Shown one piece after another: positions 6,165 through 55,700 of a stretch of 64,000 nucleotides of DNA (position 1 is its first letter; the number at the start of each line of letters is the position of its first letter). The stretch is from NCBI GenBank assembly GCA_018304025.1, contig JAGVXA010000008.1, positions 2,660-66,659 on the forward strand. Reading direction: 5' to 3'. A program made the translations under genes and the position numbers. Source of the DNA: Candidatus Pacearchaeota archaeon (GTDB taxonomy: Archaea > Nanobdellota > Nanobdellia > Pacearchaeales > GW2011-AR1). The notes below the pieces were generated by a model. It was not told the origin of the DNA. It was given only the letters and a program-made list of their open reading frames with translations, and searched no databases.

Positions 6165-6224
6165 CGTCTATAATTTTTATTTATTCTATTTGGTTAATTT
6201 TATACGAAATTAATCGGAAGGTAA

Positions 6225-6965: not shown

Positions 6966-6973
6966 GTTATTAA

Positions 6974-8385: not shown

Positions 8386-8528
8386 GTATTCTCTTGAGGA
8401 AGTTTTTTTAAAAACCTTTCTATTTGTATAAATTACAAATGTTTTGCGGCGCAATTGTCGAACAATTCGTTATTGGGAGAAAGGTTTTTAATACCGAATA
8501 GACTGAATAAATTAAGAGGAAAAATAAA

Positions 8529-9427: not shown

Positions 9428-9494
9428 ATATGTTTCTGGCACGCACTAATTTGCGCCACGCTAAATTTATATATACTTTTCTTTTTAGATTTAC

Positions 9495-12940: not shown

Positions 12941-13362
12941 TAGATTCCTGATATTTTTACTTTATTGTCTTCGGCAACAATAAGTATTTTTTTAAGTCCT
13001 GAAGAAGTTGAAATCGCGCCGTTTATTTCTATCGGGACCTTGCTTGAATAAGCAATGATAGAAGTGCCGCCGGCTGAATCGACATGAAAAACTAAATTAT
13101 TTTCTATGACTTCAATGCGGGTCACGCCTTCCGGAAGATAGCTGTTTATCGTCGTGCGCGACGGCTCTCCAGAATAGAAAGTTGACTCTGCGGAAGAAAT
13201 TATTTTTTTGGCGAATCTTTCCAGCTGGTTGAATTTGATTGAGTCCTGAATTTGAGTGGAATAAAAAAGCGAAATACCTAAAATAGTCAGAACTATGAAT
13301 GTCACGAACGAGACAACAATCAAATATTCTACGCTTATTTGCCCTCTTTTTTTGCGAATCAT
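12940..13362 (-). CDS. archaeal type IV pilin-like protein (class III signal peptide)
   Basis: MIRKKRGQISVEYLIVVSFVTFIVLTILG: KRGQ cleavage-type motif followed by a hydrophobic helix; abuts the downstream pilin-like gene. Confidence 0.65.
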   Translation of the reverse strand: MIRKKRGQISVEYLIVVSFVTFIVLTILGISLFYSTQIQDSIKFNQLERFAKKIISSAESTFYSGEPSRTTINSYLPEGVTRIEVIENNLVFHVDSAGGTSIIAYSSKVPIEINGAISTSSGLKKILIVAEDNKVKISGI

Positions 13363-13414
13363 GCAGTATTAGTGAGACAGTTAAAGTTTTAAACTTTCTT
13401 AACCAGCTATATTC

Positions 13415-13942
13415 ATGAAAAAAGAGCGAATCGTTTGGAAATTGTTTTTTTTAGCCCTTGCTATTGTGGCTATTTTGCATACTGCTGTTCATTTTGTTTT
13501 AATCGAAGGTAAAACTGCAGGATTCACGAACGAAGGAATTTCTGGTTTTACCGTCGGAAAAACGTCGATTGCAGAAGAACTTTTTGAAACTTATCCGATT
13601 GGCGCTTCTTTGTCAAGGATTATTGTACTGAGCGAATGGCTCTTTGTTATTTTGCTCGGTGTCTTTTTGTATCTTGGCATGACAAAGGATTTTAATAAAG
13701 AAATTAATGACTTGAAAGAGATAGGCCTTCCTGATAAAAAAGGATACACTACTGATTTAGACAGATTGTATGAAATGCTGAAGAACAGAAAGAGAATTGA
13801 ATTTAGAGTTATCGCAAAAGTATTCGACGTAAATCCGGATTTGGTTAAAGAGTGGAGCGAAACTTTAGAGATTGGAGGTTTAGCAAGCGTTGAATATCCG
13901 CGAATTGGCGATGCTGAATTAGTTTTAAAGGAGAGTAAATGA
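13415..13942 (+). CDS. membrane protein with C-terminal winged-helix-like domain
   Basis: two TM helices, then LDRLYEMLKNRKRIEFRVIAKVFDVNPDLVKEWSETLEIGGL; 4-nt overlap with the secretion ATPase gene. Confidence 0.45.
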   Translation: MKKERIVWKLFFLALAIVAILHTAVHFVLIEGKTAGFTNEGISGFTVGKTSIAEELFETYPIGASLSRIIVLSEWLFVILLGVFLYLGMTKDFNKEINDLKEIGLPDKKGYTTDLDRLYEMLKNRKRIEFRVIAKVFDVNPDLVKEWSETLEIGGLASVEYPRIGDAELVLKESK

Positions 13943-16194: not shown

Positions 16195-17072
16195 AATTTA
16201 AAGTTCCATTTTCATTCGCGGATATTGACAAGTTAAAAAAACGTTCTGTTCTTTTCAGAAAATATGTAGGGCGAGGCATAGGAAAGGAATTAAGGGAAAA
16301 TCTAGAGAAGTCTGACGTAGAAATAAGCGGAGAGGAATATTTGGCTATTTGCGTCAGCGGTTTTGTATTTTCTTTTTTTTTAATTTTGCTGGTTTCTTCA
16401 ACTGTTTTGGTTTTTATGAAGATTAATTACGCAATTCTTTGGGCGCTGGGGCTTTCTTTTGTTTTTGGAGGTTTTGTTTTTTTCAGCAGAATGTCTTATC
16501 CGAGAGTTTATGTTACCAGAAAACAGAGAGAAATAGAGAAAAATATTATTCCGGCTTTGCAGGACGTGCTTGTGCAGCTGACTTCAGGCGTGCCTTTGTT
16601 CAGCATTTTGGTAAATATTTCTGCTTCGGAGTACGGAGAGTTGAGCTTGGAATTTAAAAAAATAGTCAGAAGGATAAACGCCGGTGTTCCTGAAACAGAA
16701 GTTCTGGATGAGATTGGCGAGAAAAATCCGTCGGTATTTTTCAGGCGGGCGCTTTGGCAGATTAGCAACGGCATGAGGGCTGGCAGTGATATTTCAATTG
16801 TCATAAGAGACAGCATTAAATCCCTGAATGAGGAGCAGCTAATTCAGATACAAAATTATGGAAACAAGCTGAATCCGAGCATAATGTTTTACATGCTTTT
16901 GACTGTTATTCTTCCGGCTTTAGCGATTACCTTTCTGACGATTATTTCGTCTTTGGTTAATTTGAGCAAAATGACGACGATGGCGATGTTTGTGGCGCTG
17001 TTTGTCGGGGTTGTTCTGGCGCAGATTATGTTTTTGGGAGTTATTAAATCTATGAGGCCTAGCTTGTTATGA
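16191..17072 (+). CDS. FlaJ/TadC-like membrane platform protein (T2SS-F domain), first of two
   Basis: 293 aa; cytoplasmic helical domain flanked by TM helices in the position expected downstream of the ATPase; 4-nt overlaps on both sides. Confidence 0.65.
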   Translation: MKFKVPFSFADIDKLKKRSVLFRKYVGRGIGKELRENLEKSDVEISGEEYLAICVSGFVFSFFLILLVSSTVLVFMKINYAILWALGLSFVFGGFVFFSRMSYPRVYVTRKQREIEKNIIPALQDVLVQLTSGVPLFSILVNISASEYGELSLEFKKIVRRINAGVPETEVLDEIGEKNPSVFFRRALWQISNGMRAGSDISIVIRDSIKSLNEEQLIQIQNYGNKLNPSIMFYMLLTVILPALAITFLTIISSLVNLSKMTTMAMFVALFVGVVLAQIMFLGVIKSMRPSLL

Positions 17073-18262
17073 AACACAAAAAAATAATTCATCACGGAGA
17101 GCATCACGGAGAGAAGAAAACTGAAACAAAGCAGGTTCATCATAAAGAACATCACAAAGATTTTCAACACAAAGATATTCATAAAGAACATCATCAGGAA
17201 GTTCATAAAAAAGTAATTGAAACAAAACATATTCAGCACAAAGATATTCATAAAGAACATCACAAAGATTTCCAAAAAGAAAAAACCTCGAGCGCGGGGG
17301 AAATTTTTAGCAAAAAGCCCGAGCCCCAGGAATTATTTATTGACATAAAAAAAGAGGATGTGGTTTATCCGAAAGAGGAAAAAAAGAAACTAAACTGGAA
17401 ATATCTTCTGCTGTTTGTTCTAGCTGTTTTAATTTGGGAGGGTGTTTTTTATTTCACGAAAAATCTGCTGAATATTGGCGCGGCTTTTATCCTGATGTTT
17501 GGATTATTTGAGTTTTATGAGTTCGTAAAGAAGAAGCTTAAAATTTCTGAAGACATTAAGAAAATGGAAGAAGTTTTTCCTGATTTTATTTCGCTTATGG
17601 CGTCGAATCTTCGGGCGGGAATGACGATTGACCAGGCGATGCTGTTGAGTTCGAGGGAGGAATTCGCTCCCTTGGACAAGCAGATTGTAAGAGTTGGCAA
17701 AGATATTGTCACCGGCAAAAAAGTAAATCTTGCTCTAAGCGATATGGCTGTAAGAATTAATTCTGAAAAAATTAAAAAAATAATAATGCTTATAACTTCT
17801 GGAATGGGCGCGGGCGGGAATTTATCTGTGCTGCTTGAAGAGACTGCTACAAATATGCGGGAGAGGAATTTTGTCGAGAAGAGAGCTGCTTCAAATGTTT
17901 TGATGTATGTTATTTTTATTTTCTTTGCTGTTGCATTCGGGGCGCCGCTTTTGTTTGGTTTGTCGTCGGTTTTGGTTGAGATTTTGACGAATATGCTGAG
18001 CAGCCTTCCTTCGGATGGAATGAACGTTAGTCTGCCTTTTACCCTGACGAACGTTACTATTTCTTTGAATTTTGTTGTTTACTTTTCAATTTTATTTATG
18101 GTAGTCACAGATATACTGGCTTCTTTTGTTTTGGGATTAGTGAATAAAGGAGAAGAGAAGGAAGGAGTTAAATTTATTATTCCGATGATAGCGATTGGAT
18201 TGGTGATTTATTTTATTTCGAGGGTTATTTTATTGAGATATTTCTCGGGGGTTTTCGGGTAG
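17069..18262 (+). CDS. FlaJ/TadC-like membrane platform protein (T2SS-F domain) with His/Lys-rich N-terminus
   Basis: EVFPDFISLMASNLRAGMTIDQAM segment typical of T2SS-F/TadC domains plus several TM helices; first ~70 aa are HHGEHHGEKK...HKDIHKEHH repeats. Confidence 0.65.
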   Translation: MKHKKIIHHGEHHGEKKTETKQVHHKEHHKDFQHKDIHKEHHQEVHKKVIETKHIQHKDIHKEHHKDFQKEKTSSAGEIFSKKPEPQELFIDIKKEDVVYPKEEKKKLNWKYLLLFVLAVLIWEGVFYFTKNLLNIGAAFILMFGLFEFYEFVKKKLKISEDIKKMEEVFPDFISLMASNLRAGMTIDQAMLLSSREEFAPLDKQIVRVGKDIVTGKKVNLALSDMAVRINSEKIKKIIMLITSGMGAGGNLSVLLEETATNMRERNFVEKRAASNVLMYVIFIFFAVAFGAPLLFGLSSVLVEILTNMLSSLPSDGMNVSLPFTLTNVTISLNFVVYFSILFMVVTDILASFVLGLVNKGEEKEGVKFIIPMIAIGLVIYFISRVILLRYFSGVFG

Positions 18263-19999: not shown

Positions 20000-22429
20000 A
20001 TGGTGAAATTTAGAAAAGGGGTTTTTTTCAGCACGGACGCTTTGATAGCTTTGATACTGATATTTTTAGTCTTGATTGTTTTTTATCCGATTTTTGCCGA
20101 GATAAAACCTACTTCAGAGGTTCATTACGATGTCTTGAACTTGCTTTCCTCTTTGAAAGTTGGAGAGATAGAAAACAGTTATGCCCAGGCGCTGATCAAC
20201 AGTCACGTGATAAACAACACGAATTACAGCTTGCTAGAACAGATAGGGGAATTTTCTCTCAACGACATTGCCACAGCCAAATCCTTTACGCAAAATGTTA
20301 TGAGCGAATTGGATTTTGGAAATGAAAATTTTGGAATTTGGTACAACGACGCTTTAATTTATTCCCATAATACTTCTTCGTTTGAGGAAGCAGAGAGAGT
20401 TGAAACTGCGAGGCATATAATTTCAGGGCTGAAGTCTGGACAGGACGCGACTGGTTTTGCTGCGCGGGCTGGTTTGGCGAGCAATTACAGCCAGAGGTAT
20501 TATTATTTTGGAGGATATGCCGGCGACGGAAATCTTTCTTTTAAAATTGATTATGAAGGAGTGATTAGTTCTGCTGAGATGGAGATAGCAATCAACAAGG
20601 ATTTTGAATTATTTATTAATGGGATTGATTCGGGGAGCTATAATAAATCCACTTCAGAGTTTACTCCTTCGAGATATGCTATTCCTGCAACGAATTTTCA
20701 TACGGGTTCGAATGAAATTAAATTAATCGGAAATAATTTGTATATTGCCGGCGGTTTTTTTAAGATAGGATACAAGAGCGATGTTGAGTATGAGCAACCG
20801 GATAAATATCATTTTCCGGGGGTTGAGGGAGCTGTTAATGTTTATGACGGGTTTTACGTTCCAGGGAATTTGGATGGAATGAAAGTGAATCTGCATCTGA
20901 ATTGTTCAGATATCGATGTATTTTTGAATATCGGAAATGTAACTGTTTTTGACAGGGCTACGCTTGGCGAAGAAAACATAACAATAACTGATGCAGAACT
21001 TGATTCGAAATTGGATTATAATTTTCTCTCCAGAAAAACTGTTCCTATAAGGCTTGGCTTGAGAGAGTCGTTTGGAGGAGAAAATCGGGCGATTGATGTT
21101 TTTTCTGCTGCTGAACTTTCAGGAAGTATGAATCAGAATGTTCCTGCGGTTGGAAAAAAGGTGTTAGATCTTGTTCAAGAAGGAAATGAGATGTTTATTT
21201 ATTCTATTTTGAATATTTCTGGAAGCAAGCTTGGATTAATTGGATTTAGCAAAGATGCCGAGGATGCAACTCAACAGCACGATCTTTCTACAGATATTGT
21301 CTCGTTGAATAATACTGTTTATTCTTGGAAAGGCGGCGAGGGCTCATGTACTTGTTGCGGCATTGATAAGGCTGTCGAGAAACTTCTTGTGCAGTCTTCT
21401 CCTTCGAGATATAGGTCTATTGTGCTAATGAGCGACGGCAAGGCGAACACCGCATGCGTCAGCGGCGATGCAAAGCAGGATGCTATTAATTCTGCCTGCA
21501 ATGCGTGGGAAAATAATGGCATTCAAGTGCATGTAATAGGATTTGGACCAACGACTACTATTGATGAGGCAACTTTGCAGGCAATTGCGCAGTGCGGCAA
21601 CGGGACGTATATTTATGCGAGTGCATCAAAGCTAACAGACGCTTATATCCAGATGGCTAATCTTCTAAGCACTTTTTATGTCGGGCAGACAGTCGGAGTT
21701 CTTGGAAATATCAGAATGAAACTTTTCCCGGACTCTTACATAGAATTTGATTATGCCAAGACAGCTGCTCCGTTTGGACTGTACATCACTTCGGAAAATA
21801 GTTTTAGTGACGCTTATTCGGGAAGTTTTAATGTTCCTGCCGGAAGCCAGGTACTTGATATGAATGTTGTTTCTTATTCCGGACCGAGATGGACTGATTA
21901 TGTTGAAGTGAATGGAAATAAAATATACAAACTGAGCGATTACGGAACAAATTATATTATGCTGGGCGATCCGTACACTTATAACTCGCCTGTTTCGCTT
22001 GTTACGCCCGGAACAAATTATGTTAATCTTACTACGGCGCTAAACATCACCAGCAATTTTTCTGGTTCTGTTTCAAATAAAATTATTTACACTCTTGTGA
22101 GAAATGTTTCTGTGTTTTCTGACATTATGGTGACGGCAAACGGATGCCTCTGGGATGTTCAGTTCGACGGTGTTGTTTCTTCTGTTGCGATACCTTCTTC
22201 CTATACGGGAACTGAGAAATGCGTTTATAACGACACGGAGCAGAAAATTTCTAATCCTAATGACGCGTATCAGATTGCTGTGATGGGGCTTTTGCAGCAG
22301 CTTGATTTAAATGCCGACGGGAAAGTTGATGTCGCTTTTGGAGCAGGAGACTTAAATGTTTTTCTGGATGAAGTTGAAGGAATTCCGATTCCATGGTCAA
22401 TTGAGGTGGAGGCGAGATTATGGTATTAA
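20000..22429 (+). CDS. large pilin-like protein with von Willebrand factor A domain
   Basis: N-terminus FRKGVFFSTDALIALILIFLVLIV (class III-like). vWA-like motifs ELSGSM (MIDAS position), IVLMSDGKAN, VHVIGFG. Confidence 0.6.
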   Translation: MVKFRKGVFFSTDALIALILIFLVLIVFYPIFAEIKPTSEVHYDVLNLLSSLKVGEIENSYAQALINSHVINNTNYSLLEQIGEFSLNDIATAKSFTQNVMSELDFGNENFGIWYNDALIYSHNTSSFEEAERVETARHIISGLKSGQDATGFAARAGLASNYSQRYYYFGGYAGDGNLSFKIDYEGVISSAEMEIAINKDFELFINGIDSGSYNKSTSEFTPSRYAIPATNFHTGSNEIKLIGNNLYIAGGFFKIGYKSDVEYEQPDKYHFPGVEGAVNVYDGFYVPGNLDGMKVNLHLNCSDIDVFLNIGNVTVFDRATLGEENITITDAELDSKLDYNFLSRKTVPIRLGLRESFGGENRAIDVFSAAELSGSMNQNVPAVGKKVLDLVQEGNEMFIYSILNISGSKLGLIGFSKDAEDATQQHDLSTDIVSLNNTVYSWKGGEGSCTCCGIDKAVEKLLVQSSPSRYRSIVLMSDGKANTACVSGDAKQDAINSACNAWENNGIQVHVIGFGPTTTIDEATLQAIAQCGNGTYIYASASKLTDAYIQMANLLSTFYVGQTVGVLGNIRMKLFPDSYIEFDYAKTAAPFGLYITSENSFSDAYSGSFNVPAGSQVLDMNVVSYSGPRWTDYVEVNGNKIYKLSDYGTNYIMLGDPYTYNSPVSLVTPGTNYVNLTTALNITSNFSGSVSNKIIYTLVRNVSVFSDIMVTANGCLWDVQFDGVVSSVAIPSSYTGTEKCVYNDTEQKISNPNDAYQIAVMGLLQQLDLNADGKVDVAFGAGDLNVFLDEVEGIPIPWSIEVEARLWY

Positions 22430-24406: not shown

Positions 24407-24898
24407 ATGAAAAAGAAAGGACAAGCAGCTATGGAGTTTTTGATGACTTATGGCTGGGCTATTTTGGCTGCGATAATTGTTATCGGAGTGATTGCGATTT
24501 ACTTTAGACCTGGGAATCTTGTAGGGCAGGCAAGTATTTTTAGTCCGCCGTTTACTGCAGTATCACAAGCGATTACTGCCTCGAATGAGATAGCTAGAAT
24601 AGAACTAAGAAACAGCGGAGCAGAATCATTAAGTCTTGCGGCAGCACCAACAGCGACTATAAACAATCCTTCTGGAGGAACTTGTACTCCTGTTTTGTCA
24701 GCTACCCAAGGAGGAGCAACTGTGGCTTACCCATATACTTGGAACTCTGGAGTAACGCTCTTTTTAGACTGTACAAGCAGCGCAGATTTAGTTGCAGGTA
24801 AAACTTTTGATGCTGATATTACAGTAACGTACACGAGTGGCGCAGGTACGCTAGCAAAAGTTTCTACTGGAACAATTTCTGGTAAAATCAACGCTTAA
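24407..24898 (+). CDS. archaeal type IV pilin (candidate major pilin)
   Basis: MKKKGQAAMEFLMTYGWAILAAIIVIGVIAIYF class III signal peptide; strong AAGGAGGT 8 nt upstream of the ATG; Thr/Ser/Ala-rich globular part. Confidence 0.75.
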   Translation: MKKKGQAAMEFLMTYGWAILAAIIVIGVIAIYFRPGNLVGQASIFSPPFTAVSQAITASNEIARIELRNSGAESLSLAAAPTATINNPSGGTCTPVLSATQGGATVAYPYTWNSGVTLFLDCTSSADLVAGKTFDADITVTYTSGAGTLAKVSTGTISGKINA

Positions 24899-41541: not shown

Positions 41542-42168
41542 ATGAGCGGAGAAATAGGTGAGTCGCAATTCAAGAGATGGATTGCGTATAAAATGAGAGC
41601 AGGCGATATTCTTGCGGGAAAGCCGGTTGTTGCCGAGGAGAAACTGCAGCATCTGGAGATTAACGGGCGGGAGATTAACCGAGTTAATGTTATTGCTAAT
41701 ATCGTTGAAAAATATGTTCAAGAAGGAGAGAAGAAATTTGGCTCGCTGACTTTGGACGACGGTTCTGGACAAATCCGCCTGAAGTTTTTTGGAGAAGATG
41801 TTGAAAAAATGAGCGGGCTGAACCAAGGCGATACTGTCCTTTGCATCGGGATGCTGAGAACTTGGAATAACGAGCTGTATGTCACTCCTGAAATTTTGAA
41901 GAAAAAAGAGCCGGCATTTCTTTTGGTTAGAAAATTAGAAATTGAAGCTGATGCGCCGAAAACTTTGGCTCGAGAGGAGATTGCGGAATTGAAAGACAAG
42001 ATTTTGAAGATGGTGAAGGGGGCTGAAGAGGGCGGGGGGATTGATATTGACAAGATTATTATGGAGCTTCACGAGCCGCCGGAAATTATTAATTCAGAGA
42101 TAAAGAAATTGTTGGAAGACGGTGTTGCTTATGAGCCGAGGCCTGGGAAATTGAGATATTTAGGGTAG
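41542..42168 (+). CDS. RPA32/Stn1-like OB-fold ssDNA-binding protein with C-terminal winged helix
   Basis: OB-fold segment VNVIANIVEKYVQEGEKKFGSLTLDDGSGQIRLKFFGED...GDTVLCIGMLRTWNNELYV and C-terminal wH IINSEIKKLLEDGVAYEPRPGKLRYL. Confidence 0.55.
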   Translation: MSGEIGESQFKRWIAYKMRAGDILAGKPVVAEEKLQHLEINGREINRVNVIANIVEKYVQEGEKKFGSLTLDDGSGQIRLKFFGEDVEKMSGLNQGDTVLCIGMLRTWNNELYVTPEILKKKEPAFLLVRKLEIEADAPKTLAREEIAELKDKILKMVKGAEEGGGIDIDKIIMELHEPPEIINSEIKKLLEDGVAYEPRPGKLRYLG

Positions 42169-42768
42169 TTCTTTCCTGCATAGATAGTCAAGGAATTTTT
42201 TCTCTTTGTTTATTGGAACCTGCCATCTTTTGATTATTTCAAAATTTTGAGTTAATAATTTTTTGATTTCATCATCTCTGTATAGAGAAAACCAGCGTTT
42301 TCCTCCTTCTTTGAATTCTTCGAATCCTTCACCCTCGCCTTCTTTTAGCGATATAAAAAACAGCCCATTATCTTTTAGCATTTCTTTAATACTTTCTATA
42401 ACTTTCGGAACATTTGACTTCGGTAAATGCAGAAGAGAAGTATACGCCAAGACAACATCAAAACTATTTTTTGGAAGGCTGAGCTTTTCTATGTCCATCT
42501 TTATTGTTTTTAGTCCTTTTTCTTTGCATTTGTTCAGCATTTTTTCTGAGATGTCCAAGCAGAGAACATCATGGTTTTTTTGTTTGAAAACAAATGCATG
42601 ATTTCCTGTGCCTGAGCCCAAATCAAGAATTTTTGAATTGCGTGGAAACGTCTTTTCAATTTCATTAATTTCGTCTTTAATAAATTCCCGCACGTATTCT
42701 TCAAATTTTTTATTGAAATAATCTGAATGGGAATCATATACTTTTAGTGTTTCTTCTTTGTAATCCAT
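42160..42768 (-). CDS. class I SAM-dependent methyltransferase
   Basis: motif I ILDLGSGTGNHA, motif II-like VLCLDISEKM, FDVVLAYTSLLHL. Confidence 0.75.
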   Translation of the reverse strand: MDYKEETLKVYDSHSDYFNKKFEEYVREFIKDEINEIEKTFPRNSKILDLGSGTGNHAFVFKQKNHDVLCLDISEKMLNKCKEKGLKTIKMDIEKLSLPKNSFDVVLAYTSLLHLPKSNVPKVIESIKEMLKDNGLFFISLKEGEGEGFEEFKEGGKRWFSLYRDDEIKKLLTQNFEIIKRWQVPINKEKKFLDYLCRKELP

Positions 42769-42919: not shown

Positions 42920-43072
42920 ATGGGGAGCAAAAAAGAGGCGAATGTAAAGAAATTTTTGTTGGAGATACCGGAGGAAATCTGGACTAAGTGGAAAGACAAG
43001 GTGCCGAGGTCGATTTCGCTGAATAGGGCGCTGATTGAACTGCTTGAAAAGGAGGGAGAAGATGAAGACTGA
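42920..43072 (+). CDS. small ribbon-helix-helix (CopG/Arc-like) protein, 50 aa
   Basis: Hand-translated: MGSKKEANVKKFLLEIPEEIWTKWKDKVPRSISLNRALIELLEKEGEDED (beta strand then two helices). Overlaps the start of the giant repeat gene by 11 nt. Confidence 0.45.
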   Translation: MGSKKEANVKKFLLEIPEEIWTKWKDKVPRSISLNRALIELLEKEGEDED

Positions 43073-44744
43073 GAAGAGACTGGCAATTGAAGTTTTATTA
43101 ATTGTTTTTGTAATCGGATTTTTGTTGGTTTCTGCTTCTGCTGCTGTGCTTCTTTCGGATCAGGGAACTGATGTAAAAGACAAAACAACAGGGCAACTTC
43201 TTGAGAGCGGAAATCTGACGATAACAATTTATGATGCGGCTGCTGACGGAACCCTGATTTTCAACCTGACAACCACGAACGCGATTGCAAATGGCTCGTG
43301 GAATTTGATGATTTCAGCTAATTTGGAATTTGGGAATACTTACTGGAAGGATTACATGATTAACGGCGAGGATCTTGATTTTGACGGGAATGAGAGAATT
43401 TCTTTTCAATCTCCTCTTGGGCAGATAAACAACGCTTCGCTTATTAATTTTTCATTGATAAACAACTGCTCGGCTGGGAGTTCGATAAGAATGATTTACG
43501 CGAATGGGAGTGTTGTTTGCGAGACAGATGATTCGGGGAGCGGGAATGTAGTTAATGGCACAACATTAACAATAACGAATATAACTGACTTTTTGTATAA
43601 CTATAATACAACCTCGCTGTTCACGACTTGGCTTGCGACTTTTTATTACAATTACAATCAAACTGGGGCTGCGAATAACTATAACTACAACGAGACATTA
43701 GCTGCTAATACTTCTATCTTCACAAATTACGGGAAATGGTGGTACAACATGACGAATAATACTTGGGACTACAATCAATCGAATACACTTTATTTCTATA
43801 ATCAATCAGGAATTTATTATTATAATCAAACGGGAGCAGCAAGCAATTATAACTACAACGAGACATTAGCTGCTAATATTTCTATTGTTACTAACTACGG
43901 AAAATGGTGGTATAATCAAACAAATACACTTTACTACTACAACCAATCTGGAATTTATTACTACAACCAAACGGGAGCAGCAAGCAATTATAATTATAAT
44001 GAGACATTAGCTGCAAATATTTCTATCTTCACAAATTATGGGAAATGGTGGTATAATCAGTCAAACAACACTTGGGATTACAATCAAACTAACACATTAT
44101 ATTTCTATAATATGACGGGAGGAAATTATGGATACAACCAAACTAACACAACTTGGCTACTTTACTTTTACAATCAATCGAATACAACTTGGGACTATAA
44201 TATGACTGGGGGAAGTTATAATTACAATGAAACTCTCGCAGCCAATTTGTCTATCGTGACTAATTACGGTTTGTGGTGGTACAATATGACTGGAGGAAAT
44301 TATAACTATAATCAATCAAATGTAACCTGGCTACTTTACTTCTACAATCAAACTGGCGGAAGTTATAATTACAATGAAACTCTTGCTGCTAATATTTCTA
44401 TTGTTACTAACTACGGAAAATGGTGGTATAATATGACGGGTGGAAACTATAATTATAATCAATCGAATACAACTTGGTTATATAATCAGTCGGGAATTTA
44501 TTATTATAATCAGACAATTTATCGACGTATAACGAAACATATACGATCTGGGCATACAATCAAACGGGAGCAGCAAGCAATTATAATTACAACGAGACAC
44601 TGGCTGCAAATATTTCTATCGTTACTAATTATGGTTTGTGGTGGTACAATCAAACTAATACACTTTATTATTACAATCAATCTGGAATTTATTACTACAA
44701 TCAAACGGGAGCAGCGAGCAACTACAATTACAACGAGACATTAG
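43062..44744 (+). CDS. giant Asn/Tyr/Trp-repeat surface protein, fragment 1 (meaningful frame ends near 44516)
   Basis: ATG at 43062 with GGAGGG upstream. N-terminal hydrophobic anchor LAIEVLLIVFVIGFLLVSASA, then NYNYNETLAANxSIVTNYGKWWYNQT-type repeats. After 44516 this frame reads out-of-frame repeat sequence. Confidence 0.65.
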   Translation: MKTEKRLAIEVLLIVFVIGFLLVSASAAVLLSDQGTDVKDKTTGQLLESGNLTITIYDAAADGTLIFNLTTTNAIANGSWNLMISANLEFGNTYWKDYMINGEDLDFDGNERISFQSPLGQINNASLINFSLINNCSAGSSIRMIYANGSVVCETDDSGSGNVVNGTTLTITNITDFLYNYNTTSLFTTWLATFYYNYNQTGAANNYNYNETLAANTSIFTNYGKWWYNMTNNTWDYNQSNTLYFYNQSGIYYYNQTGAASNYNYNETLAANISIVTNYGKWWYNQTNTLYYYNQSGIYYYNQTGAASNYNYNETLAANISIFTNYGKWWYNQSNNTWDYNQTNTLYFYNMTGGNYGYNQTNTTWLLYFYNQSNTTWDYNMTGGSYNYNETLAANLSIVTNYGLWWYNMTGGNYNYNQSNVTWLLYFYNQTGGSYNYNETLAANISIVTNYGKWWYNMTGGNYNYNQSNTTWLYNQSGIYYYNQTIYRRITKHIRSGHTIKREQQAIIITTRHWLQIFLSLLIMVCGGTIKLIHFIITINLEFITTIKREQRATTITTRH

Positions 44745-45172
44745 CTGCAAATATTTCTATCGTGACTAATTACGGTTTGTGGTGGTACAACATGACCGGA
44801 GGAAATTATAACTATAATCAATCAAATGTAACTTGGCTACTTTACTTCTACAATCAAACGGGGGCAGCAAGCAATTATAATTATAATGAAACATTAGCCG
44901 CTAATTTGTCTATCGTCACAAATTACGGTTTGTGGTGGTACAATCAGACAAACACGCTTTACTATTACAATCAGTCGGGAATTTATTACTACAACCAAAC
45001 GGGAGCAGCGAGCAACTATAATTATAATGAAACATTAGCCGCTAATTTGTCTATCATCACAAATTACGGGAAATGGTGGTATAATATGACGGGTGGAAAC
45101 TATAATTATAATCAATCGAATACAACTTGGTTATATAATCAGTCGGGAATTTATTATTATAATCAGACATAA
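44510..45172 (+). CDS. giant repeat surface protein, fragment 2 (frame shifted relative to fragment 1)
   Basis: The frame opens at 44510 and reads SDNLSTYNETYTIWAYNQTGAASNYNYNETLAAN. There is no plausible start or RBS. It ends at TAA 45170-45172. Confidence 0.55.
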   Translation, partial: SDNLSTYNETYTIWAYNQTGAASNYNYNETLAANISIVTNYGLWWYNQTNTLYYYNQSGIYYYNQTGAASNYNYNETLAANISIVTNYGLWWYNMTGGNYNYNQSNVTWLLYFYNQTGAASNYNYNETLAANLSIVTNYGLWWYNQTNTLYYYNQSGIYYYNQTGAASNYNYNETLAANLSIITNYGKWWYNMTGGNYNYNQSNTTWLYNQSGIYYYNQT

Positions 45173-46781
45173 TGAGACTTACGCTGGACTGATTAACAAC
45201 GCGTCTTATTTATCGACGTATAACGAAACATATACGATCTGGGCATACAATCAAACGGGGGCTGCGAATAACTATAATTACAACGAAACTCTCGCAGCTA
45301 ATTTGTCTATTGTAACTAACTACGGGAAATGGTGGTACAACATGACGGGAGGAAATTATAACTATAATCAATCAAATGTAACTTGGCTACTTTACTTCTA
45401 CAATCAAACCGGAGCAGCGAGTAATTATAATTATAATGAAACACTAGCTGCAAATATTTCTATTGTTACTAACTATGGTTTGTGGTTCTATAATCAGACA
45501 AACACGCTTTATTATTACAACCAATCGGGAATTTATTATTATAATCAATCGGGCGCAGCAAGCAATTATAACTATAATGAAACTCTCGCAGCCAATTTGT
45601 CTATCGTTACTAACTATGGTTTATGGTTCTATAATCAGACAAACACGCTTTATTATTACAATCAATCGAATAAAACTTGGGATTACAATATGAGTAATAC
45701 ATTGTATTTCTACAATATGACGGGGGGAAGTTATTTGTACAACGAGACATTAGCTGCAAATATTTCTATTGTAACTAATTACGGAAGCTGGTGGTATAAT
45801 ATGACTGGCGGAATTAATAATTACAATCATACATTAATTGCGAATGAATCTATCGTCGCTAACTATGGTTTGTGGTTCTACAACATGTCTGACGGCGGAA
45901 GCGTAACAAACGGATCTGTGCTGTCAATCGACAACATAACTAATTTATTGTACAATTACAATCAAACAAACACGCTTTACTACTACAATCAATCTGGAAT
46001 TTATTACTACAATCAATCGAATAAAACTTGGGACTACAATCAAACTAACAATTTGTATTTCTACAACCAATCAGCAACGCTTTATTTCTACAACATGTCT
46101 GACGGCGGAAGCGTAACAAACGGATCTGTGCTGTCAATCGACAACATAACTAATTTATTGTACAATTACAACCAGACAAACACGCTTTACTACTACAACC
46201 AGTCTGGAATTTATTATTACAACCAGTCGAATAAAACTTGGGACTACAATCAAACTAACAATTTGTATTATTACAATCAGTCAGCAACGCTTTATTTCTA
46301 CAATATGACTGGCGGAAGTTATTTGTACAACGAGACATTAGCCGCTAATCTATCGATAGTTACGAACTATGGCGATTGGTGGTACAATCAAACAAACACG
46401 CTTTACTATTACAACCAGTCAGCAACGCTTTATTTCTACAATATGACTGGGGGAAGTTATTTGTACAACGAGACATTAGCAGCTAATTTGTCTATTGTAA
46501 CTAATTATGGCGATTGGTGGTACAATCAAACAAACACGCTTTACTATTACAACCAGTCAGCAACGCTTTATTTCTACAATATGACGGGGGGAAGTTATTT
46601 GTACAACGAGACATTAGCCGCAAATATTTCGATTGTTACAAATTACGGGAAATGGTGGTACAACATGACGGGCGGAATTAATAATTACAACCACACATTA
46701 ATTGCGAACGAATCTATCGTTACAAATTACGGCTTGTGGTTTTACAACATGGAGGAGATTACAACTATAATGAGACATTAG
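45093..46781 (+). CDS. giant repeat surface protein, fragment 3 (meaningful from 45171)
   Basis: From 45171 reads NETYAGLINNASYLSTYNETYTIWAYNQTGAANNYNYNE and continues the repeat array; runs out of the repeat frame near 46751. Confidence 0.55.
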   Translation: METIIIINRIQLGYIISREFIIIIRHNETYAGLINNASYLSTYNETYTIWAYNQTGAANNYNYNETLAANLSIVTNYGKWWYNMTGGNYNYNQSNVTWLLYFYNQTGAASNYNYNETLAANISIVTNYGLWFYNQTNTLYYYNQSGIYYYNQSGAASNYNYNETLAANLSIVTNYGLWFYNQTNTLYYYNQSNKTWDYNMSNTLYFYNMTGGSYLYNETLAANISIVTNYGSWWYNMTGGINNYNHTLIANESIVANYGLWFYNMSDGGSVTNGSVLSIDNITNLLYNYNQTNTLYYYNQSGIYYYNQSNKTWDYNQTNNLYFYNQSATLYFYNMSDGGSVTNGSVLSIDNITNLLYNYNQTNTLYYYNQSGIYYYNQSNKTWDYNQTNNLYYYNQSATLYFYNMTGGSYLYNETLAANLSIVTNYGDWWYNQTNTLYYYNQSATLYFYNMTGGSYLYNETLAANLSIVTNYGDWWYNQTNTLYYYNQSATLYFYNMTGGSYLYNETLAANISIVTNYGKWWYNMTGGINNYNHTLIANESIVTNYGLWFYNMEEITTIMRH

Positions 46782-47734
46782 CAACGAACGTATCGATAGT
46801 TACGAATTATGGTTTGTGGTGGTACAATCAGACAAACACGCTTTACTACTACAACCAATCTGGAATTTATTATTACAATCAATCAAACAAAACTTGGGAC
46901 TACAATCAATCTGCTACGCTGTATTTCTACAATATGACGGGAAGTAGTTACAATGAAACTCTTGCTGCCAATTTGTCTATTGTAACTAATTATGGCGATT
47001 GGTGGTACAACATGACGGGCGGAATTAATAATTACAACCACACATTAATTGCGAACGAATCTATCGTTACAAATTACGGCTTGTGGTTTTACAACATGAC
47101 TAGCTACAATCATACGTTGGCTGCTAATGAATCTATCGTTACTAACTATGGATTGTGGTTTTACAATATGACTGGAAGCAGTTACAATGAAACACTGGCA
47201 GCTAATTTGTCGATTGTAACGAATTACGGTTTGTGGTGGTATAATATGACTAGCTACAATCATACGTTGGCTGCGAATGAATCTATCGTTACTAATTATG
47301 GATTGTGGTTCTACAACATGTCTGACGGAGCGGGAGGAGATTATAATTACAATGAAACTCTTGCTGCTAATACTTCTATCGTGACAAACTACGGAAGTTG
47401 GTGGTACAATATGACAAACACGCTTTATTATTACAACCAGTCAGCAACGCTTTATTTCTATAACATGTCGTACGCAAAACCATGGAATTATAACCAGACA
47501 TCTGGCTCAATTTATTATTACAACCATTCGACTACGATTTATTATTATAACCAAACGAAAGTTCCGAATGCTGATTTGCACACGCACAATGCCTCGAATA
47601 TAACTGCGGGAACATTCAACGGGGATTATAATATCACTGCGAACTTGACATTTAACGGGAACAATGACGCTGTTGTGATGGGCGGCGCGAGGATATACTG
47701 GGACGGAAGTAAATTGGTGATAAAGGTGAGTTAA
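46736..47734 (+). CDS. giant repeat surface protein, fragment 4 with non-repeat C-terminal module
   Basis: From 46751 reads GGDYNYNETLATNVSIVTNYGLWWYN. Ends with the non-repeat LHTHNASNITAGTFNGDYNITANLTFNGNNDAVVMGGARIYWDGSKLVIKVS. Confidence 0.55.
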   Translation: MVLQHGGDYNYNETLATNVSIVTNYGLWWYNQTNTLYYYNQSGIYYYNQSNKTWDYNQSATLYFYNMTGSSYNETLAANLSIVTNYGDWWYNMTGGINNYNHTLIANESIVTNYGLWFYNMTSYNHTLAANESIVTNYGLWFYNMTGSSYNETLAANLSIVTNYGLWWYNMTSYNHTLAANESIVTNYGLWFYNMSDGAGGDYNYNETLAANTSIVTNYGSWWYNMTNTLYYYNQSATLYFYNMSYAKPWNYNQTSGSIYYYNHSTTIYYYNQTKVPNADLHTHNASNITAGTFNGDYNITANLTFNGNNDAVVMGGARIYWDGSKLVIKVS

Positions 47735-49525
47735 ATGAAGAACAAGACTTTGATAATTTTGCTGATAATTTTGCTGATTGCTCCAGCAGCACAGGCGTCT
47801 TTTTTTAGTGATATTGCGGGAGAGTTCCTGCAGTTTCTTGGAATTATCAAGATAACGAAAGCTAATCATCTTGATTCAGATAGAAATCTCGTTTCAGATA
47901 TTTATGAAGAAGTTAAAGCATTGGATGGTATTTGGTCTGAGGCAATTTCAGATGGAGAATATGTAAGAATTACTTTTGAGAAAAAATTAACCTCTTCGAA
48001 TGATATTACTGTTTATCCGAGGATTGTTTCGGGGAATCCGAAGATTGAGATTTATGAAGCTGGAGAAGAAGAGATTATAGCGGAGTTTGTTTCTCTTGAT
48101 TCAAATCAATACAACAAAGTTTATCTGACAAATTTGGTTGGCGAGCAGGATACTTTTGATTTGAAGATTATGGAGGGGAGCGTGGAGTTTGATCATATAA
48201 TTGACCCTGAACCTGTTTGCGTTGCTGGCACATGCACAGTAACATTTACTTCTACTAATTTGTCGTGGGGCGTGCCTGCGGGAGTTACAACAATTACAGG
48301 TTTGGCTGTTGGAGGCGGAGGCGGTGGATGCCGTTCTACTTCTGCTGGCGGAGGCGGCGCAGGAGGCGATTTAAGAATTAAGACTTCAATAGGTGTTACG
48401 CCTGGACAAAGTTTAGTAATTATGGTAGGTACTGGCGGGGCTGCAGCGGCTACATCTGCTCGTTCTGGCGGCTATTCTTCAATTTCAAATAATTCAGTTA
48501 TAAATGCAACAACCACTTTGCTTCTTGCTGCTGGAGGTGGAGGCGGAACAGAGGCTGCTAATGCAACAAACAATGGAACAAGCACCCCTCTCAATGGAGG
48601 AGTTACTGGCGGGACTGGCGGGGAGGGTGGTAATGGGGCTAGCAATTCTGACTGCGGAGGCGGAGGCGGAGCAGGTGGGTGGTATGGCAGAGGCGGAGCA
48701 GGCGGAAATTCCGGAGACAATAACGGTGCAGATAGTACTGGCGGAGGCGGCGGAGGCGGAGGCGGTTCTGGTACAGGCAGCGCTGTATGTGGTGGTGGCG
48801 GAGGAGTAGGAATAGTTGCTGCAGGAAACAATGGAACTGGCGGAGCATACGGCGCTCCTGCTGCTTCTCCAGGAACAAATGGCTCGTTAGGAAACAACGG
48901 AGTTGGCTCAGCAGGCGGATTATACGGGGGCGGGGGCGGAGGAGACGATAATAATGCTGGCGCGCAAGCTGGCGCAAATGGCGCTGTTGTTATTACATAT
49001 TTACAACCAGACTCAATCTACCCAACTTTTTCCGGCTACTGGGATAATAATGCAACTCTTGTTGACAGCGGGATAGCTTTGTTCAACGCCACAATTGAAA
49101 ATGCCAACGGAACTGCGTGGATTACTATAAATGGCGTTAATTATACTGCGACTAATTTTACAACAAATAGATATAATGTTTCTGTAACTTTAACTGGCGG
49201 AACTTATACTTACAACTGGAGCGCGTATGGAAACGGGACCCAGCATAATCTTAATCTTTCTAGAAGTGCTGGGTATTACACTGTAAATACTTCAAGCAGC
49301 TGCGCTTATTCTGGGCCGGGGAATTGGGCTTTGAATTGCGCGGATAATTGTGTTTTTTCTTCGACGACAACAATTGCAAATTATGATAATGTAACTATAA
49401 CTGGTATAGGTGCTTTGAATTTCAGCAGTGGCGGGAAATGGAGTTTCACTGGAAGCAATCAATATGTTACTATAGCGTCGGGATGTACATTAAATGTTGA
49501 GCCTGGCGGGGGATGGAATTATTAA
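47735..49525 (+). CDS. secreted protein with central glycine-rich domain
   Basis: Signal peptide LIILLIILLIAPAAQA. Core FTSTNLSWGVPAGVTTITGLAVGGGGGGC...GGAGG...VTPGQSLVIMVGTGG...ANGAVVITY. ATG directly follows the stop of the giant gene. Confidence 0.6.
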   Translation: MKNKTLIILLIILLIAPAAQASFFSDIAGEFLQFLGIIKITKANHLDSDRNLVSDIYEEVKALDGIWSEAISDGEYVRITFEKKLTSSNDITVYPRIVSGNPKIEIYEAGEEEIIAEFVSLDSNQYNKVYLTNLVGEQDTFDLKIMEGSVEFDHIIDPEPVCVAGTCTVTFTSTNLSWGVPAGVTTITGLAVGGGGGGCRSTSAGGGGAGGDLRIKTSIGVTPGQSLVIMVGTGGAAAATSARSGGYSSISNNSVINATTTLLLAAGGGGGTEAANATNNGTSTPLNGGVTGGTGGEGGNGASNSDCGGGGGAGGWYGRGGAGGNSGDNNGADSTGGGGGGGGGSGTGSAVCGGGGGVGIVAAGNNGTGGAYGAPAASPGTNGSLGNNGVGSAGGLYGGGGGGDDNNAGAQAGANGAVVITYLQPDSIYPTFSGYWDNNATLVDSGIALFNATIENANGTAWITINGVNYTATNFTTNRYNVSVTLTGGTYTYNWSAYGNGTQHNLNLSRSAGYYTVNTSSSCAYSGPGNWALNCADNCVFSSTTTIANYDNVTITGIGALNFSSGGKWSFTGSNQYVTIASGCTLNVEPGGGWNY

Positions 49526-49526
49526 G

Positions 49527-51143
49527 ATGACATTAAAAAAAAAGATAGTTTTTTTAATTTTTATTTTAATATTTGCGCAGGGAGTTTTTGCTACAATTGC
49601 GGAATCTGAGAATTATTCTGTCGCGAGATTTGGGACTGGAGTTCAAGCATCTAATTTTAGTTCTACTAATTTAGAAGCGCGCTCTGTTTTGCTGGCTAAC
49701 GCGGGGACGCGGGCTGCGGGAAATAGTTTATTGACGACAAATGTCGGATTTTGGGGGAATACAACTTATCACGTTATTGTAAGCTTAAGCTCTTATTCAA
49801 CTTCTCCGTCGTCTGCGACTGTCGGCTCAACAATCAGCTTGTCTATCTCAGCATTGAATTCTCAGGCTGTTTGGGCAAAGATAATTTCGCCGAATGCGAT
49901 GGAGCAGACGCTGACTTTGACGAACGGCGGGAGCGTGACTTATCTTCCGTCCCCTTCGGTTGTCGGGAGATATAATGTTACGTTTTACGCAAATAGTTCT
50001 TCGGGTGCGATTGCGAGCGCTGTTTCATATTTTGAATTGACAGCAGCGCCGTCAACAACGCCTGCGCCGAGCGGGGGCGGAGGAGGGGGCGGAGGAACGA
50101 CGAAGATAATAGAAAAAAGCTGCACATACAATTGGGACTGCACGCCGTGGAGCGTTTGCTCAGAAGGAAAACAAAGAAGAGAATGCAAGAATATTGGAAC
50201 ATGCAGCGGGACAGAGAGCAAACCGATAGAAGAAATGCCGTGTTCAGAAGCGTTGTTTGATATTGCTGTCAAGCTAAAAAATATAAAACTAAATGGAAAT
50301 AAAAGTTTAATAATCGAGGTAGAACTAAAAGAGAAAAAAAGTATAGAAAAAATTGATGTTCATATAAAACATTCTATAATTGACAGCGAGAATAATGAAA
50401 TTTTCAGCCAGATAGAAACAAAGGCGATAATCGGAGAGTTATCCTATCAAAAAGAAATAAACGAAGTTAAATTAGCAGATGAAGAATATACACTAAGAGT
50501 AGATGTTCTTTACGGGAATTTGCAGAGGGCTTTCGCTGAGCAGAGGTTTACTGTTGAAAAAGGAGAGATTGAAACCGAAAAAGAATATAAGATAATTCCG
50601 ATAATTCTAATTTTTCTGGTTCTGATGATTATGATTTTGGTTTTGGTTGTTCTTATTTACAGAAGAAAAATAAAAGAAAGTTTGAGAAAAATCAAAGTTA
50701 GGCAGGCCGCAGTTGTATTTGGCTTTGTCGTAATTTTGAGTTTGATTCTTATGCGCGGCAGATTAGTTGGATTTGCTGTAGACGGCGCAAATGCTGTGAA
50801 GAACAGCTGGATAGTCTGGATTATCTTGATTATATTAGTGCTTGGGCTGTTTATTTTTATTTACAGAAGAAAAATTAAGGAGATTGCTGGAAAGATTCAG
50901 AGCGAGAAGAGTTATCCGCAGAATAATGTTAATGGAGTTTTGAACAAGCAAGTTTATACAGAAGGAGGGCAATATCTTGGAAGAGTCAGGAGTATTGTTT
51001 TAGGCAAGAATGGAATTCAAAGATTAAAGGTAAAATTTGGCGCTGGAATCGAGAGCAAAGAAAATATTGTTGATTACCAGGATGTGAAAAATGTCGGGCG
51101 GCAGGTTATTATTGTTGAGAAGGAAGAGAAAGGTTTTGGATAG
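49527..51143 (+). CDS. surface/membrane protein with Cys-rich module, TM helices and PRC-barrel-like C-terminus
   Basis: Signal peptide IVFLIFILIFAQGVFA. Poly-Gly, then CTYNWDCTPWSVCSEGKQRRECKNIGTCSG. Three TM helices. C-terminal YTEGGQYLGRVRSIVLGKNGIQRLKV resembles a PRC barrel. Confidence 0.5.
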   Translation: MTLKKKIVFLIFILIFAQGVFATIAESENYSVARFGTGVQASNFSSTNLEARSVLLANAGTRAAGNSLLTTNVGFWGNTTYHVIVSLSSYSTSPSSATVGSTISLSISALNSQAVWAKIISPNAMEQTLTLTNGGSVTYLPSPSVVGRYNVTFYANSSSGAIASAVSYFELTAAPSTTPAPSGGGGGGGGTTKIIEKSCTYNWDCTPWSVCSEGKQRRECKNIGTCSGTESKPIEEMPCSEALFDIAVKLKNIKLNGNKSLIIEVELKEKKSIEKIDVHIKHSIIDSENNEIFSQIETKAIIGELSYQKEINEVKLADEEYTLRVDVLYGNLQRAFAEQRFTVEKGEIETEKEYKIIPIILIFLVLMIMILVLVVLIYRRKIKESLRKIKVRQAAVVFGFVVILSLILMRGRLVGFAVDGANAVKNSWIVWIILIILVLGLFIFIYRRKIKEIAGKIQSEKSYPQNNVNGVLNKQVYTEGGQYLGRVRSIVLGKNGIQRLKVKFGAGIESKENIVDYQDVKNVGRQVIIVEKEEKGFG

Positions 51144-55202: not shown

Positions 55203-55224
55203 CGAATTTATTTTGAGTCTTTAT

Positions 55225-55555
55225 GTCTCGGTAGCTCAGTTGGCAGAGCACATGGCTGTGGACGGAGTTTGGTGTGAAGAAAGATATTTTAATAATATCG
55301 TCGATACTTTACATCGAACTAAATAAAGTAGCAGCTTCCGCAGGAAACCGCGGAATGAAAAGCGAGTAAATTCAGGGAAACCCTACGATAACGCCGAGGG
55401 CAATCCTGAGCCAAGCCCGAAAGGGAAGGTGCAGAGACTAGACACTCGCCACCTAAAGCTTAGAAATAAGCAATGGTGAAGGTATAGTCCTACCCTCCAA
55501 GAGATTGGAAAAGGTCGTAACCATGGGGTCGGAGGTTCGAGTCCTCCCCGAGACG
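55225..55555 (+). tRNA. tRNA-Asn(GUU) interrupted by a 258-nt intron between anticodon positions 35 and 36
   Basis: Exon 1: GTCTCGG TA GCTC AGTTGGCA GAGC A CATGG CTGT. Exon 2: TAA CCATG GGGTC GGAGG TTCGAGT CCTCC CCGAGAC G. All stems are perfectly paired. Joined loop is CTGTTAA; discriminator G; no encoded CCA; TTTT follows. Confidence 0.8.
55260..55517 (+). ncRNA. group I intron (IC3-like core, no ORF)
   Basis: IGS GCAGCT 55331-36. P2 TTCCGC/GCGGAA. P3 GCGAGT 55362-67 / ACTCGC 55444-49. J3/4 AAATT. P4 TCAGG/CCTGA. P6 CCC-GAAA-GGG. P7 GACTA 55436-40 / TAGTC 55485-89. P8 GCTTA-GAAA-TAAGC. P9 CCAA-GAGA-TTGG. Terminal G at 55517. Confidence 0.8.
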
Positions 55556-55559
55556 TTTT
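55532..55559 (+). repeat. direct repeat copy 1 (the genuine tRNA 3' end plus TTTT)
   Basis: GAGGTTCGAGTCCTCCCCGAGACGTTTT. Confidence 0.9.
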
Positions 55560-55590: not shown

Positions 55591-55618
55591 GAGGTTCGAG
55601 TCCTCCCCGAGACGTTTT
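55591..55618 (+). repeat. direct repeat copy 2 of the tRNA 3' end (att-like)
   Basis: 28/28 identical to 55532-55559; the sequence upstream of it does not complete a tRNA. Confidence 0.9.
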
Positions 55619-55677: not shown

Positions 55678-55700
55678 AGGTTCGAGTCCTCCCCGAGACG
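55678..55700 (+). repeat. direct repeat copy 3 of the tRNA 3' end (att-like)
   Basis: AGGTTCGAGTCCTCCCCGAGACG, 23/23 identical to the tRNA T-arm/acceptor 3' strand. Confidence 0.9.

Follow-up and report, generated by a model that had tools for sequence, protein, structure and literature searches.

The question raised by this locus is why a gene whose repeats read on without a break should change its reading frame three times. It lies in a stretch of 64,000 nucleotides (nt) from a Candidatus Pacearchaeota archaeon (assembly GCA_018304025.1, contig JAGVXA010000008.1, positions 2,660 to 66,659), here called the window, whose own numbering is used unless another contig is named. At 43062..47734 on the plus strand, a repeat gene dominated by Asn, Tyr and Trp codons occupies 4,673 nt in four frame pieces. 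An initial annotation, made from the sequence alone, had named three possible causes: an error of assembly, the decay of a pseudogene, and slippage-driven on/off variation of a giant glycoprotein adhesin. We consider it highly probable that the four pieces belong to one intact gene, of at least 4,857 nt and 1,618 amino acids (aa), which was damaged by short-read assembly and which codes for an exported surface protein.

The ATG at 43062 opens frame 0, and the listing of open reading frames (ORFs) and the three-frame translation both give the order of the pieces as 0/2/0/2: a first frame-0 piece at 43062-44516, a frame-2 piece at 44519-45172 (with a TAA at 45170), a second frame-0 piece at 45171-46750, and a last frame-2 piece from about 46751 to 47734, all on the plus strand and with jumps where the initial annotation had placed them. 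Most of this length (43632..47557, plus strand) is the Asn/Tyr/Trp repeat region, delimited by Tandem Repeats Finder arrays, sequon density and composition; its units are variants of NYNYNETLAAN(L/I)SIVTNYG(K/L)WWYN(Q/M)T and YYYNQSGIYYYNQ(T/S). Tandem Repeats Finder recovers the two periodicities that had been described, 138 nt in 3.0 copies at 46245-46663 and 210 nt in 2.1 copies at 45876-46315, together with several of 141, 168 and 294 nt. The duplicated block of about 650 nt at 43.86/44.52 kb, by comparison, does not hold as one block: it is patchy, with 81-88% similarity in pieces of 220-310 nt and one exact stretch of 99 nt. Searches of the repeat-gene region for tRNA and Rfam features found none.

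The comparison set consists of the public contigs from groundwater metagenomes (ENA, JGI and Logan) that carry the neighbouring genes of the window; the products of the downstream gene (47735-49525) and of the upstream methyltransferase gene (42160-42768, minus strand) are found as identical proteins on 22-24 public contigs. In L009 (JGI 3300025015) the repeat gene is a single ORF of 4,857 nt and 1,618 aa at 2851-7707 (minus strand). L001/L007 have the sequence of L009 except for a gap of 100 Ns and one single-nucleotide polymorphism (SNP), and yield an open frame of 1,618 codons when the Ns are taken out. A single ORF of 1,548 aa is found in L008 (3061-7707, minus strand) and one of 1,145 aa in L002, a NODE contig in the style of SPAdes (6563-10000), while L003 and L010 have long continuous partial ORFs reaching the contig end (in L010 at 1-3189, minus strand). 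All covered junctions are in frame in seven other contigs, which come from six other assemblies of this groundwater population. The flanks of the window and of L001/L007 differ by 1 SNP in 12,427 nt downstream and by none in 10,357 nt upstream; being essentially identical, they mark the two as the same strain.

In a global alignment with the L009 gene, the window gene shows no mismatch and lacks exactly four pieces. These are 58 nt at the first junction (44516/44517; intact-gene position 1456-1513; frame 0 to 2), 20 nt at the second (45169/45170; 2166-2185; frame 2 to 0), 13 nt at the third (46751/46752; 3767-3779; frame 0 to 2), and 93 nt, that is 31 codons, at the fourth (47098/47099; 4126-4218), which leaves the frame as it was and which lay beyond what a reading of the window could see. 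The TAA at 45170 is a consequence of the 20-nt loss. The 13 nt at the third junction agree with the deletion postulated there from paralogous repeats; the 38 nt postulated at the first were an underestimate, because the paralog used as yardstick (45170-45207) is itself short by 20 nt. Where the window reads CAGACA/ATTTAT, CAGACA/TAATGA and AACATG/GAGGAG at its first three junctions, the intact sequence reads CAGACA-GCGGTTTCGTCTGGAACGTATAATGAGACTTACGCTGGACTGATTAACAATGCGTCTT-ATTTATCG across the first, ...NQTAVSSGTYNETYAGL... across the second (in frame in L002 and L003, with the protein text ...YYYNQT-AVSSGTY-NETYAGL...), and LWFYNMSDGAGGDYNYNET across the third (in frame in L003 and L001).

That meaningful repeat text resumes at once in another frame at each break could also suggest programmed recoding, in which the ribosome would change frame, or pass the TAA at 45170 by readthrough, and so join the four pieces into one protein. 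The junctions, however, show no slippery heptamer or shift-prone site (ACA-TAA-T, ACA-ATT, ATG-GAG), and an intact DNA version in the same population supplies exactly the residues that the ribosome would have to skip, so that we give recoding practically no credence.

The junctions themselves are peculiar to the window. The 40-mers across its four junctions occur in no other contig, and the wild-type 40-mers at the same boundaries are present wherever a contig covers them (L001/L007, L002, L003, L005, L008, L009 and L010) and are never found in the window. In a cluster look-up, the truncated 560-aa product is found on one NCBI contig only, and the neighbouring proteins on 16 (the 596-aa downstream protein) and 21 contigs from NCBI, JGI, ENA and Logan; an exact look-up of the 560-aa and 332-aa window fragments among public contigs had given no match, the 560-aa product being placed later through the clusters. 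Scans of metagenome contigs for the first two junctions, and for a gapped pattern of the third that fits both forms, also gave no match, and missed the wild-type form as well; they are uninformative, since the gapped pattern matches L009 and the collection scanned therefore lacks the locus.

The positions of the losses follow a strict geometry. Exact repeats of more than 100 nt occur only twice in the intact gene: 1357-1505 = 2068-2216 (149 nt), within a 711-nt tandem duplication, and 3670-3803 = 4030-4163 (134 nt), within a 360-nt tandem duplication. With the deletions shifted to the right by 0, 1, 2 or 3 nt, which is within the ambiguity of the alignment, their starts (1456, 2167, 3769 and 4129) each come to lie exactly 99 nt beyond the first base of a repeat copy (1357, 2068, 3670 and 4030). 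Correspondingly, the longest exact repeats of the whole window are two pairs of 99 nt on the plus strand, 44418..44516 = 45071..45169 and 46653..46751 = 47000..47098, and all four copies end at a junction, the first pair at junctions 1 and 2, the second at junctions 3 and 4. The third-longest exact repeat of the window is a self-overlap of 96 nt at an offset of 45 nt (tandem), at 14376-14516, inside a gene for a T2SSE ATPase; it falls only slightly short of the limit of 99 nt.

This geometry bears directly on the reading of the locus as a real, strain-specific pseudogene, in which three out-of-frame deletions would have inactivated the gene in a sub-population that the window faithfully records. 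The frame breaks do stand in the window sequence, repeat genes are prone to deletion, and the copy number of the repeats varies among the assemblies (1,145, 1,548 and 1,618 aa). Yet there is not one substitution over 4,673 nt alongside the lesions, the flanks differ by a single SNP in about 22.8 kb from assemblies with an intact gene, and the lesions are reproduced in no other assembly: the junction 40-mers are missing from every one of them and the truncated product is confined to a single contig. Moreover, all four losses begin at a depth of exactly 99 nt in a copy of the only two exact repeats that exceed 100 nt, positions for which mutation has no reason and whose coincidence by chance we estimate, roughly, at about 1e-10; and the microhomology at the break points is only 0-3 nt. 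We therefore regard decay as very unlikely.

The same positions are expected from assembly. When a contig built from a de Bruijn graph with k = 100 runs out of unique sequence into a longer exact repeat, it stops k-1 = 99 bases into that repeat. Contigs entering the 149-nt and 134-nt repeats would thus have ended 99 nt inside them, and the contig ends at the four repeat copies would have been joined to downstream sequence, skipping 58, 20, 13 and 93 nt; the frame would then seem to shift three times, a TAA stop would appear that the true gene lacks, and one loss, being in frame, would pass unnoticed. For the joining step we assume an end-to-end join, with a chance overlap of 0-3 nt. Groundwater DPANN assemblies are documented to have been made with IDBA-UD at -maxk 100 (PMC8204110), and local assembly errors in repeat-containing genes are prominent in IDBA-UD output (Chen et al. 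2020, Genome Res, PMC7111523). Since the gene is one open frame of 1,618 codons in other assemblies of this strain, the comparison shows, as far as assembled sequence can, that the frame breaks of the window are assembly errors and that the gene is intact in the population. The suggestion of an assembly error in the initial annotation was thus to the point, except that the error is not a simple repeat collapse, the bases having been lost 99 nt into repeats of more than 100 nt. Three other origins of the losses were considered and set aside: trimming of adapters, to which the lost motifs bear a weak TruSeq resemblance, explains their positions less well than the 99-nt geometry; diversification of the diversity-generating-retroelement type would produce A-to-N substitutions and not deletions; and introns of the bulge-helix-bulge or any other type would act on the RNA, whereas the losses are in the DNA.

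The other assemblies also differ among each other, in whole repeat units and in frame, unlike the losses of the window. L002 lacks 711, 210, 138 and 360 nt, which are one copy each of four tandem duplications; the exact repeats of these duplications measure 149, 134, 86 and 80 nt, and a repeat of 62 nt is kept, a pattern that fits the collapse of repeats under a maximum k of 63 to 80. SPAdes is commonly run with a k of 77. L008 and L010 lack only the 210-nt unit and keep the longer repeats; the 1,548-aa version may be a true allele. Split gene calls occur on the same two contigs: the MCM gene, which has 687 aa in the window, is split into calls of 112 + 552 aa in L008 (10573-12635), and a 311-aa gene, likewise whole in the window, into calls of 87 + 222 aa in L010 (5095-6041); these may be further assembly errors or differences between strains.

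The 210-nt difference between samples, as a possible genuine copy-number allele, together with the tandem-repeat nature of the gene and its likely surface product, is also what speaks for phase variation, in which slippage or recombination in the repeats would switch an adhesin on and off and the window would have caught it in the off state. None of the breaks, though, lies at a homopolymer or short simple-sequence tract; no repeat unit fits a whole number of times into the lost lengths of 58, 20 and 13 nt; a gene carrying three independent off lesions could not switch back; and the breaks carry the 99-nt signature. An off allele, sought beyond the window by the junction 40-mers, was not found at the level of assemblies, where the seven other contigs are all in the on state at the junctions they cover. 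We consider phase variation as a cause of the breaks extremely unlikely.

It follows for the annotation of this genome that a count of pseudogenes, phase-variable loci or recoding sites should leave the broken giant gene out. The error has a diagnostic that needs no reads: the losses begin exactly k-1 nt inside exact repeats of k nt or more, and the maximal exact repeats left behind measure exactly 99 nt. A scan for this 99-nt pattern could flag similar false frameshifts in other metagenome-assembled genomes (MAGs) from short reads; such errors preferentially affect surface proteins rich in repeats, the very proteins that attract most interest in symbiotic organisms of DPANN and the candidate phyla radiation (CPR).

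The intact protein of 1,618 aa has a striking composition (N 17.7%, Y 15.3%, T 11.2%, W 4.0%, and almost no K, R, P or C) and contains 174 N-x-S/T sequons, or 10.8 per 100 aa, as against 53.8 +/- 6 in 1,000 shuffled versions, about 20 standard deviations above expectation. The saturation with sequons described initially is thus real, but the statement that nearly every Asn sits in one is too strong, the proportion being 61% of the Asn residues. An aromatic residue, mostly Tyr, precedes 68% of the 174 sequons at position -1 (43% in homologues; aromatics amount to 12.7% overall). The repeat region alone accounts for 160 sequons in 1,370 aa (N 18.8%, Y 17.4%, W 4.5%). Other proteins of the window have at most 3.4 sequons per 100 aa, the next highest being also predicted as secreted. 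The statistics show the sequons to be under strong selection, as read from sequence; N-x-S/T is the substrate motif of the archaeal oligosaccharyltransferase AglB (PMC5744192).

At the N-terminus, residues 1-28 (MKTEKRLAIEVLLIVFVIGFLLVSASAA; 43062..43145, plus strand) form a predicted signal peptide, as judged from hydrophobicity, an AlphaFold helix and the family alignment. The only hydrophobic segment of the intact protein comprises residues 3-21, and the AlphaFold model has a helix at residues 2-23. Since the hydrophobic stretch of homologues ends in ...SA directly before a conserved [FV]L[IL]SDQG(T), and aligns with cleavable-looking signal peptides across the family, cleavage as a Sec signal peptide is more probable than the permanent anchor of the initial annotation. 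It is followed by a conserved N-terminal domain (aa 29-161; 43146..43544, plus strand), consisting of an Ig-like (immunoglobulin-like) β-sandwich core, predicted by AlphaFold2 with a pLDDT (predicted local distance difference test) above 90 over aa 30-100, and of a lower-confidence stretch with two conserved Cys. Foldseek returns only generic Ig- and fibronectin-type-III-like matches for this domain, the best at E 5.6e-3, and no specific PDB neighbour. The repeats end in a non-repeat C-terminal tail (KVPNADLHTHNASNITAGTF...GGARIYWDGSKLVIKVS; 47558..47731, plus strand), without a hydrophobic anchor and, like the N-terminal domain, without a Pfam match; its ending ...MGGxxIYWD..xLVI(K/Q)VS is common to the homologues P0020 and P0021, and its motif DLHTHNA(S/L)NIT to P0002 and P0009. 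The HTH(N)A motif near the C-terminus shows no more than a resemblance to tail fibres; the intact protein, P0002 and P0007 have no PHROGs match that would indicate similarity to phage tail fibres. Several profile matches were discarded: that of Pfam Robl_LC7 to the LAANLSIVTNYG motif is regarded as spurious (about 28 aa, no per-domain threshold passed), and those of AcrF8, SQAPI and Phage_tail_U to homologues are short or below cut-off.

The N-terminal domain ties the protein to a large family. Its pattern, ...LISDQGT...NGSWN...YWKDY.INGEDLDFDGNER..FQS.LG.INN.SFINFSLI..C..GSSIR..Y.NGSV.CE, is present here after the signal peptide and is 50-67% identical in more than 20 large homologues. A profile search with the domain retrieves, at E<=1e-3, at least 1,494 representative clusters, of which 113 remain at E<=1e-30; nearly always the domain lies at residues ~20-155. 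The 25 homologues of 900-1,727 aa share the domain and are rich in sequons (3.7-9.3 per 100 aa, as against 10.8 in the intact protein); their C-termini vary, some members having a Laminin_G_3 (lectin-like) or SO2946-like_C domain. Relatives with a name come from Candidatus Pacearchaeota and Woesearchaeota MAGs (for example J4416_02215, here P0004, and the UBA73 protein, P0012), and a scan of genome contigs finds only two, from a Woesearchaeota MAG and from Pacearchaeota UBA73, at 60-66% identity. A homologue labelled 'Candidatus Paceibacterota bacterium' (P0021, 1,218 aa) has the same N-terminal domain at ~32-38% identity and the same ...RLVIQVS ending; either the family occurs across domains or the MAG is mislabelled (Pacearchaeota against Paceibacterota).

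The neighbours of the gene are conserved as well. A small ORF of 50 aa (MGSKKEANVKKFLLEIPEEIWTKWKDKVPRSISLNRALIELLEKEGEDED; 42920..43072, plus strand), called as a gene in other assemblies, overlaps the start codon of the repeat gene; it is 71% identical to a 51-aa ORF upstream of P0004 in the Pacearchaeota relative L014 (6849-7004) and has no Pfam or NCBIfam match. By eye it resembles a ribbon-helix-helix protein, and it may be a regulator or a co-translated partner. Downstream, a gene at 49494..51143 (plus strand) codes for a 549-aa protein with a signal peptide, an extracellular part, three transmembrane-like segments (362-449), and a C-terminal PRC-barrel (Pfam PRC, E 3.2e-5). In L012 (4748-6388), L014/L015 (L014 10072-11508) and L016 (9927-11336), the gene next downstream of a family member codes for a homologue with 49-52% identity, which makes the 549-aa protein a candidate for a membrane tether or assembly partner. 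In this genome only, a further gene lies between the two (47735..49525, plus strand), coding for a secreted 596-aa protein with a glycine-rich domain (Pfam Gly_rich_2, at 22.6 bits below the cut-off of 24.3); it matches phrog_4474, to which no function is assigned there, at E 6.6e-46, and has 3.4 sequons per 100 aa. By sequence comparison, domain and neighbours place the protein in a large DPANN family that lacks annotation and whose members, by prediction secreted and saturated with sequons, have the N-terminal domain and the gene partners in common; the corrected model adds to it a complete member of 1,618 aa.

The call of a giant glycoprotein is supported at this level: signal peptide, extreme sequon enrichment and similar large proteins in Pacearchaeota and Woesearchaeota MAGs all argue for a large secreted N-glycoprotein. 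Its function is most likely that of an exported, densely N-glycosylated, elongated cell-surface protein of a DPANN archaeon of the Pacearchaeota/Woesearchaeota type. In such a protein the N-terminal domain would sit close to the cell or serve in assembly, and the variable repeats and the C-terminus would face outwards, perhaps to make contact with a host or surface; its probable partners would be the PRC-barrel membrane protein, as a possible tether, and the small upstream ORF. For the family as a whole, a cell-surface or host-contact function is a reasonable candidate, and for an archaeon of the episymbiont type the role of a host-contact adhesin, as first proposed, is a plausible hypothesis. 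A more far-reaching proposal combines these elements into a widespread and so far undescribed three-gene module (a ribbon-helix-helix-like ORF of ~50 aa, an Ig-like/hypervariable Y-N-x-S/T protein, and a PRC-barrel protein), which would build the main exposed or host-contact structure of Pacearchaeota and Woesearchaeota, with the repeats folding through glycan-aromatic stacking at the Tyr-Asn-x-Ser/Thr sites, in analogy to the 'enhanced aromatic sequon', and with the 1,548-aa and 1,618-aa versions as a real variation in length; we offer it as speculation, rather unlikely to hold in full.

Several points weigh against the reading of the locus as an intact gene for an exported surface protein that assembly has broken. 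Its first part is drawn from a comparison of assembled sequences. The k of 100 for the source record of the window is taken from the geometry of the losses, and this geometry accounts only for their left-hand ends: among the unitig boundaries tried for k = 40, 60, 80 and 100, no repeat ends fit the right-hand ends. L009 is itself a short-read assembly, so that the true copy number of the repeats could differ from that of the 1,618-aa version. As for the protein, its function is deduced from sequence features; Pfam, NCBIfam, PHROGs and PDB sequences contain no real match that would assign the intact protein to a named family; no AglB/STT3 oligosaccharyltransferase is found among the ORFs scanned, which are those of the window; and no C-terminal membrane anchor of the transmembrane or PGF-CTERM type is found in the intact protein, which ends in ...SKLVIKVS. 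A repeat block of 330 residues, with seven homologous segments, is modelled by AlphaFold2 at a mean pLDDT of 31.9 with scattered strands only, which neither supports nor refutes a β-solenoid.

Elsewhere the window contains a type IV pilus-like cluster at 12548-18262, in which a T2SSE ATPase (13939-16194) is followed by two T2SSF platform proteins (16191-18262); proteins that resemble pilins and bear class III-type signal peptides, such as MIRKKRGQISVEYLIV and MKKKGQAAMEFLMTYGW, in pilus-like regions that include 24407-24898; a secreted 809-aa protein with a von Willebrand factor A (VWA) domain at 20000-22429; and a family 2 (GT2) glycosyltransferase at 4187-5443. A feature of a different kind is a tRNA-Asn(GTT) at 55224-55556 (plus strand) with an intron of 258 nt at position 37, found by ARAGORN when introns are allowed; in its standard mode ARAGORN reports no tRNA in the whole 64 kb. 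The intron, in the anticodon loop, is a complete group I intron (Rfam RF00028, 83 bits, 55284-55511). Introns in the tRNAs of archaea normally belong to the bulge-helix-bulge type, so that a group I intron is unusual in a DPANN tRNA. Just downstream, at 55592-55614 and 55678-55700, the 3'-end of the tRNA (AGGTTCGAGTCCTCCCCGAGACG) recurs in two extra copies, which resemble the att-site remnants of integrating elements.

Among the closest known systems are the large 'hypothetical proteins' of Pacearchaeota and Woesearchaeota MAGs, with which the protein has in common the signal peptide, the N-terminal domain of ~135 aa, the Y-N-x-S/T repeats, the small upstream ORF and the PRC-barrel neighbour; it differs from them in the unusual regularity of its repeats, in their richness in Tyr and Trp (Y 15%, W 4%), and in a C-terminus reduced to a short tail. 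The underlying gene is in this respect an ordinary, uncharacterised member of a widespread family of putative surface glycoproteins. With archaeal S-layer glycoproteins, such as those of Haloferax volcanii and SlaA of the Sulfolobales, it shares its size, secretion by an N-terminal signal peptide and a multitude of N-x-S/T sequons; unlike them, it lacks sequence or profile similarity to the described S-layer families (Pfam, NCBIfam, PDB) and a C-terminal transmembrane or PGF-CTERM-type anchor, and its density of sequons and content of Asn, Tyr and Trp are far more extreme.

The apparent frame changes in a tandem-repeat surface-protein gene recall the slipped-strand repeat adhesins of bacteria, from which the locus differs in that the breaks lie outside any simple-sequence tract, the indels are not of unit length, and independent assemblies are all in frame. 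Another parallel is found in the local errors described for short-read genomes of the IDBA-UD type (PMC7111523), where the error likewise lies inside a coding gene with multiple repeats and the consensus is contradicted by other assemblies. What sets the losses of the window apart from these errors is their precise geometry, k-1 = 99 nt into every exact repeat of more than 100 nt, which makes the error diagnosable from the sequence alone.

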